Of a stretch of 64,000 bases of DNA, positions 16,928-17,654 are shown one piece after another (position 1 is the stretch's first letter; each line of letters starts with the position of its first letter). The DNA is from Escherichia coli. Its GTDB lineage: Bacteria; Pseudomonadota; Gammaproteobacteria; Enterobacterales; Enterobacteriaceae. The stretch is taken from NCBI RefSeq assembly GCF_048403405.1, contig NZ_CP183129.1; one strand, written 5' to 3'. The notes beneath the pieces are model-generated. The model was not told the origin of the DNA, ran no database searches, and saw only the letters and a program-made list of their open reading frames with translations. The translations under genes were made by a program, and so were the position numbers.

Positions 16928-17654
16928 ATGACTCATGTCTGCTCGGTGATCCTCGTTCGTCGTTCATTCGATATTTATCATGAACAGCAAAAAATATCGT
17001 TGCACAACGAGAGTATCCTGTTACTGGATAAAAATTTGGCAGACGATTTTGCGTTTTGTTCACCGGATACGCGACGACTGGATATCGATGAGCTGACAGT
17101 TTGCCATTACTTACAAAATATTCGTCAGATACCACGCAATTTAGGGTTACATAGCAAAGACCGTCTGTTAATTAACCAGTCCCCCCATGCCGCTGGTGAC
17201 GGCGATTTTTGATAGTTTCAATGACTCCGGGGTAAATTCACCGATACTGAGCAAAATGCTCTATCTTTCCTGTTTATCGATGTTTTCTCATAAGAAAGAA
17301 CTGATCCCCTTACTTTTCAATAGTATCAGTACTGTTTCAGGAAAAGTTGAACGCCTTATTAGCTTTGATATCGCCAAACGTTGGTATCTGCGCGATATTG
17401 CGGAAAGAATGTATACCAGCGAGAGTCTAATCAAAAAAAAGTTGCAGGATGAAAATACCTGTTTCAGTAAAATATTACTCGCCTCCAGGATGTCGATGGC
17501 CAGACGATTACTCGAGTTACGTCAAATTCCTCTGCATACTATTGCGGAAAAATGTGGCTATAGCAGTACATCGTACTTTATAAACACATTTCGACAATAT
17601 TATGGTGTAACGCCACATCAGTTTGCGCAACATTCGCCAGGTACCTTTTCCTGA
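16928..17654 (+). pseudogene. gadW: gadW (AraC-family regulator) split by a frameshift in a C6 homopolymer at 17181-17186
   Basis: N-terminal ORF 16928-17212 (94 aa) and C-terminal HTH-domain ORF 17187-17654 (155 aa) lie in different frames and join at ...INQSP / MPLVTAIFD... Confidence 0.6.

Follow-up and report, generated by a model that had tools for sequence, protein, structure and literature searches.

Is gadW of this Escherichia coli strain truly lost and, if so, by what kind of mutation? In the window (the whole 64,000-nucleotide stretch of DNA analysed), the gadW locus spans positions 16928–17654 of the plus strand and is 727 bp long, against 729 bp for the intact gene. Its 5' open reading frame (16928–17212, plus strand) encodes 94 amino acids, namely GadW residues 1–86 followed by the tail HAAGDGDF, and ends at a TGA codon (17210–17212) eight codons past the frame shift, which occurs after Pro86. 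The 3' open reading frame (17187–17654, plus strand) encodes 155 amino acids, starting at the native Met88 and continuing to residue 242, and six-frame translation places it in the +1 frame relative to the first. Both frames meet at the sole run of six cytosines (C6) of gadW, at 17181–17186; the surrounding sequence, between 17150 and 17215, contains ...TTAATTAACCAGTCCCCCCATGCCGCTGGTGACGG.... The original prediction of a break at this run is confirmed by the open reading frame listing and the six-frame translation, as is its statement that the loss of one nucleotide or the gain of two would restore a single frame: cutting the run to five cytosines in silico gives an uninterrupted protein of 241 amino acids, and extending it to eight gives one of 242. 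A single 242-codon frame is not found in the window; the shift after codon 86 and the stop at 17210–17212 lead us to class the locus as a gadW pseudogene.

Inserting CA in silico restores a protein identical to GadW of strains MS 69-1 and CFSAN018748 (WP_000150006.1), which shows the break to be real rather than a chance pattern of open reading frames. Of the 242 residues of the repaired protein, 5 are different in K-12 GadW. The locus lies where gadW is expected, between gadX/gadY and mdtF, the order gadA-gadX-gadW-mdtF-mdtE-gadE being the same in CFSAN018748, MS 69-1 and K-12, and an 801-bp query matched annotated gadW in 5,415 of the 5,426 complete E. coli genomes. A Pfam search of the repaired protein identified HTH_18 (residues 158–235, E = 3.6e-13) and HTH_AraC (residues 203–233, E = 5.3e-10), and structural relatives in the PDB are Rns, CsvR, the GadX DNA-binding domain and ToxT. 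The AraC-type DNA-binding domain is thus complete within the 3' open reading frame, all of it 3' of the break, while a Pfam search of the 94-amino-acid product gave no domain. No Shine-Dalgarno-like sequence or ribosome-binding site was found in the sequence upstream of the ATG at 17187. As the N-terminal piece lacks the DNA-binding domain and the C-terminal 155 codons lack a ribosome-binding site, full-length GadW is predicted to be absent under normal translation, and the 86-residue N-terminal fragment is predicted to be non-functional.

Base-level comparison with MS 69-1, CFSAN018748 and K-12 locates the lesion at 17180–17186 (plus strand), comprising the deletion point and the C6 run. In the three reference strains (K-12 as MG1655) the site reads AAC CAG TCA CCC CCC ATG, coding for N-Q-S-P-P-M, whereas the codons of the window are AAC CAG TCC CCC CAT G. 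T17180 is followed directly by CCCCCC where the intact allele has T-CA-CCCCCC, a CA (or, equivalently, AC) being absent between 17180 and 17182. In the intact allele, TCACCCCCC, the C6 run is preceded by TCA and has the same length as in the window. Because the missing dinucleotide includes an A, a simple miscount or slippage of the C-run is ruled out. The original prediction, that gadW had been inactivated through a change of this run, was therefore right about the inactivation, through frame shift and stop, but not about the run, which is also C6 in the relatives. For the same reason, a tract of five or eight cytosines is the wrong sequence to expect of an intact gene.

The most economical, and most likely, origin would be a single-step deletion. 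Removal of two bases (CA or AC) would have taken the last two bases of the Ser85 codon TCA or, in an equivalent view, the A together with the C that opened the run; the T of the Ser85 codon would thereby have been joined to the C6 run coding for Pro86–Pro87, giving the reading TCC-CCC-CAT. Such a loss would most likely have arisen by misalignment during replication, when the last C of a nascent strand ending in ...TC re-paired within the C-run, two bases further on, with two template bases looped out; we equally propose the mirror event on the other strand. The C-run would then serve as a landing pad, its own length remaining unchanged. A hairpin or quasi-palindrome mechanism, or a Sanger compression, was considered and rejected: the GTCACC/GGTGAC stem has a folding energy of −5.6 kcal/mol and a z-score of −1.75, which is not significant (13 of 200 shuffled sequences fold as well), and the palindrome is not perfected by the deletion.

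Over 18 kb, the closest genomes are those of MS 69-1, 4621, TUM1226 and OX030728, which are about 100% identical to the window except for an IS1. Across the 64-kb window, comparison with MS 69-1 gives four true SNPs in about 63 kb (those at 7303, 29977 and 57879 are listed), the IS1 and the 2-base gap; an apparent further SNP at 15771 is the last base of the IS1. In gadW there are no SNPs between the two, and the gap is the sole difference. CFSAN018748 is collinear with the window except that, in the latter, gadX has a 765-bp insertion and gadW the 2-base gap. We consider it probable that gadW has suffered a genuine and recent loss of function, private to this strain, by a 2-base deletion.

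Alleles at codons 85–87 were counted in the 5,426 complete E. coli genomes, with 39–42-nt queries built so that all 28-mer seeds cover the site; because SNPs in the flanks block the seeds, some 1,130 of the gadW-bearing complete genomes fall outside this census. The intact TCA+C6 form was present in 4,286 complete genomes (2,692 of them exact matches) and TCA+C5 in one (strain N169, annotated by PGAP as 'frameshifted'), while TCA+C7, TCC+C6 (a run of eight, C8) and the T+C6 allele of the window were each found in none; for the last, an 80-mer and a 39-mer query both remained without a match in complete genomes. Metagenome contigs, scanned independently, contained 34 intact C6 alleles and one in-frame TCC+C6. 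Rarer lesions were found by exact-protein look-ups beyond the complete-genome set: TCA+C4 in a read set (L006), yielding an identical 94-amino-acid protein, TCA+C5 in an NCTC strain (L008), TCA+C7 in L015, and an insertion sequence just 5' of the site in L009. Codons 85–87 thus form a soft spot at which mutations occur, though at low frequency. Run-length variation, at about 1 in 4,300, is too rare for a phase-variable switch: tract length does not differ between the window and its close relatives (C6 in both), and frequent tract-length polymorphism is not observed (4,286 C6, one C5, no C7 and no C8 among complete genomes). The slippage-prone switch that had been suggested is contradicted by these counts.

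The T+C6 allele was also seen in one other read set (L005, Logan SRR22198919), in a background about 1% diverged from the window, with an intact gadX and a nearest complete genome only 99.1% identical to it. The positions concerned are L005:1849 and L005:2095; in addition to the T+C6 allele, this gadW has lost one base from its A8 run (window position 17433). This sequence is either a decaying pseudogene of another lineage or the product of noisy reads, and is no more than suggestive of an independent recurrence of T+C6.

The same final sequence would also result from a route of two or three steps, which would still leave a pseudogene: a synonymous change of TCA to TCC would create a C8 run, TCCCCCCCC, followed by slippage from C8 to C6, either directly or through C7. 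Longer homopolymer runs slip more readily, and true run-length variants do occur at the site (C4 in L006; C5 in N169, L008 and S. dysenteriae-type genomes; C7 in L015). A natural in-frame TCC+C6 allele is present at 1882–1918 of L043, from the human-gut metagenome contig OYCR01000008.1; it is synonymous at Ser85 and is potentially a more slippage-prone variant of gadW. Comparison of the C-tract across isolates, which had originally been recommended, gave C6 for the nearest relatives and K-12; the existence of this one unrelated contig leaves a C8-to-C6 route conceivable. However, the gap columns of the base-level alignment are a C and an A, the C8 query matched 0 of the 5,426 complete genomes, and the sole carrier of C8 is unrelated to the window, from which it is 1.7% diverged (2.9% from L005). 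The nearest relatives, which differ by only four SNPs over 63 kb, have TCA+C6, so that a transversion at the exact base and one or two slippages would have to fit into a very short time, against one event for the deletion. We regard this route as unlikely.

A sequencing or assembly artefact would mean that the strain has the intact TCACCCCCC and that base-calling or the consensus step dropped two bases. The site is C-rich and lies inside the weak inverted repeat GTCACC...GGTGAC, the window allele occurs in 0 of the 5,426 complete genomes, and the L005 and L015 sequences, with indels at the site, both show one more indel in a homopolymer close by, which indicates that public data may contain errors of this sort. 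Against this, the window contains 300 homopolymers of at least 5 bases (95 of at least 6, and seven 8-mers), and no homopolymer length differences from MS 69-1 were found over the 64 kb and its approximately 300 runs. The absence of any other indel besides the IS1 relative to a genome only four SNPs away, together with the presence of an A among the missing bases rather than C's alone, makes a base-calling error, a possibility raised by the original prediction, unlikely. The hairpin at the site is not significant, at −5.6 kcal/mol and with 13 of 200 shuffles folding as well, and the partner gene of the regulatory pair, next to the lesion, has clearly been hit as well, by an IS1 with its target duplication. 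An artefact is thus a decidedly poor explanation, and a real 2-base deletion the better one.

Translation might still bridge the break. The 3' open reading frame is in the +1 frame, and a slip from CCC to CCC in the ribosomal P site would put ATG (Met88) in the A site; sequences of the type CC[C/U]-[C/U] are documented as +1-slippery, with slip frequencies in E. coli that reach up to about 1% when the motif is at codon 2 (PMC4519876). Such a slip would produce a 241-residue GadW without Pro87, while re-initiation at Met88, conceivable with the 5' stop (17210–17212) 23 nt downstream of the 3' start, would produce a free DNA-binding domain, the whole of which is carried by the 3' open reading frame. 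If so, low-level or constitutive GadW-like activity in a strain without GadX would rewire the acid-resistance circuit rather than abolish it. The TCC-CCC-C-ATG junction, with its downstream frame in +1, resembles sites of non-programmed +1 frameshifting at CCC-C (tRNA-Pro, m1G37/EF-P; PMC4519876), but it is internal, not conserved and has no stimulatory element, and a slip at background level would be expected. Measured against a prfB-type site, it has the slippery P-site codon (CCC-C at 17182–17185, the next +1 codon being ATG) but neither the stimulators nor a conserved split arrangement: the upstream sequence, TTAATTAACCAGT, offers no Shine-Dalgarno-like stimulator, and the A-site codon is CAT, not a stop. 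The figure of about 1% moreover holds for codon 2, the position most prone to shifting, general background being below 0.003% (PMC4519876). A trace of 241-residue GadW (S-P-M...) may be made through the CCC-C slip. An alignment of GadW with GadX, made to judge tolerance of the loss of one proline, shows similarity from residue 110 onwards only and so does not reach residues 85–88. With a split arrangement in 0 of the 5,426 genomes, run-length variation of about 1 in 4,287, and no ribosome-binding site before 17187, it is highly improbable that the split gadW is other than null, be it through a +1 slip, termination and re-initiation, or reversible switching of the C-run.

The second lesion lies in gadX (14958–16559, plus strand), which, from the open reading frame listing and sequence comparison, is interrupted after nucleotide 46, leaving an intact open reading frame of 254 amino acids from Met21 (15795–16559, plus strand). 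The inserted element is a 768-bp IS1 (15004–15771), the only copy in the window, with insA and insB on the minus strand. It is flanked by a 9-bp target duplication, CAAGACATA, at 14995–15003 and 15772–15780, and its ends, GGTAATGACTCC... and ...GGCAGCATCACC, are terminal inverted repeats; all features by which an IS1 is recognized are present, in agreement with the insertion first reported there. An outward-directed IS1 promoter reading into the gadX remnant was considered and rejected, as none of the promoter-like sites lies on the plus strand and their number does not exceed the expectation from shuffled sequence. The same IS1 junction is absent from the 5,426 complete genomes. An IS1 in or beside gadX is found in nine of them, in which the two halves of the query are 335–656 bp apart and the element hence occupies other positions; gadX seems to be a gene that IS1 hits repeatedly. 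The two private disruptive events, in gadX and gadW, fall within 1.55 kb of the approximately 63 kb compared, for which uniform placement gives a probability of about 6e-4, as a post-hoc estimate. The clustering suggests that loss of the GadX/GadW tier has been selected or, at the least, tolerated; it may reflect target preference as well.

The neighbouring genes are unaffected: gadY, gadE, gadA, mdtEF and hdeABD are identical to those of MS 69-1 or K-12. The small RNA gene gadY (16576–16681, minus strand) matches K-12 gadY b4452 at 106 of 106 positions and has a terminator-like hairpin at 16602–16584. gadE (22651–23178, minus strand, 175 amino acids) is identical to that of MS 69-1 and, as originally proposed, is the member of the GadE/GadX/GadW trio that remains intact. 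Further along, at about 26340–35300, a chu/shu haem-uptake cluster (chuA, chuS, shuT, hutW, hutX, chuY, shuU and an ATPase gene) sits within the acid fitness island, with yhiD on one side and dctR/slp on the other, the same place as in MS 69-1; its presence there is ordinary for such an E. coli background. The window is also identical to MS 69-1 across about 36957–38073 (minus strand), including a T8 run at 36978, where MS 69-1 has a 'frameshifted' hypothetical-protein pseudogene (L003, 5472–6588). By this identity, a second frameshifted coding sequence is common to the window and MS 69-1.

Similar gadW lesions are known from other genomes. In E. coli N169 (NZ_CP189507.1, ACP71E_RS01075), gadW is also frameshifted at codons 85–87, with a truncated N-terminal product and a downstream open reading frame of 155 amino acids; there, however, the run itself has contracted (TCA+C5, −1) and gadX is intact, whereas in the window two bases are lost beside an unchanged run and gadX carries an IS1. 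Genomes of the S. dysenteriae 1617 type (for example CP006736.1, and CP026774/777/780/786/878) resemble the window in that gadW is inactivated at the C-run, an IS1 has a part in the decay of the gadXW pair and the 155-residue C-terminal open reading frame is annotated as 'GadW'. They differ in that the run is C5, the IS1 lies within gadW, and gadX is intact at 274 amino acids; moreover, in the genomes examined their lesions are fixed across a whole lineage, while those of the window are private to one strain. Seven genomes of about 4.3–4.4 Mb (L007, L010–L014 and L016; about 1967–3468) have this S. dysenteriae 1617 arrangement, each with two gadW lesions, an IS1 in the N-terminal part, which leaves a 45-amino-acid fragment, and a contraction from C6 to C5. 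In the literature on gadW frameshifts and pseudogenes, on IS1 in Shigella gadW, and on gadX, nothing was found that describes the window allele. The split gadW is an ordinary pseudogene and opens no new mechanism. It also shows how an apparent homopolymer frameshift can be a dinucleotide deletion beside an unchanged run, for which counting the C's would use the wrong expectation.

As read from the sequence, this strain has neither of the AraC-type regulator genes of the acid fitness island in unbroken form: gadW is disrupted by the deletion and gadX by the IS1. In K-12, every GadW binding site is also a GadX site, a gadW knockout alone causes no significant change in transcripts at GadW/GadX targets, GadX represses gadW, and GadX and GadW activate gadE in stationary phase (PMC4918353). 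Given the shared targets and the activation of gadE, double loss would remove the GadX/GadW tier and leave GadE-centred control in place; by analogy with K-12, the GadX/GadW-dependent stationary-phase input into gadE, gadA and gadBC is expected to be lost, and the GadE-dependent routes to be kept. The predicted phenotype would be an altered stationary-phase, glutamate-dependent acid resistance.

[quoted passage not shown] In the passages and abstracts considered, the change is described as down-regulation of the regulon (attributed in the isobutanol lines to reduced RpoS activity) rather than as a gadW frameshift. Those are also laboratory populations, whereas the window has the background of a natural isolate related to ST69 and carries two small lesions private to it. 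It would represent a natural isolate, close to ST69-type strains, in which GadX and GadW have been lost by two independent private events. This fits a GadX/GadW tier that is dispensable and repeatedly lost, as in the S. dysenteriae-type genomes, in sporadic E. coli isolates and in the recurrent IS1 insertions in gadX.
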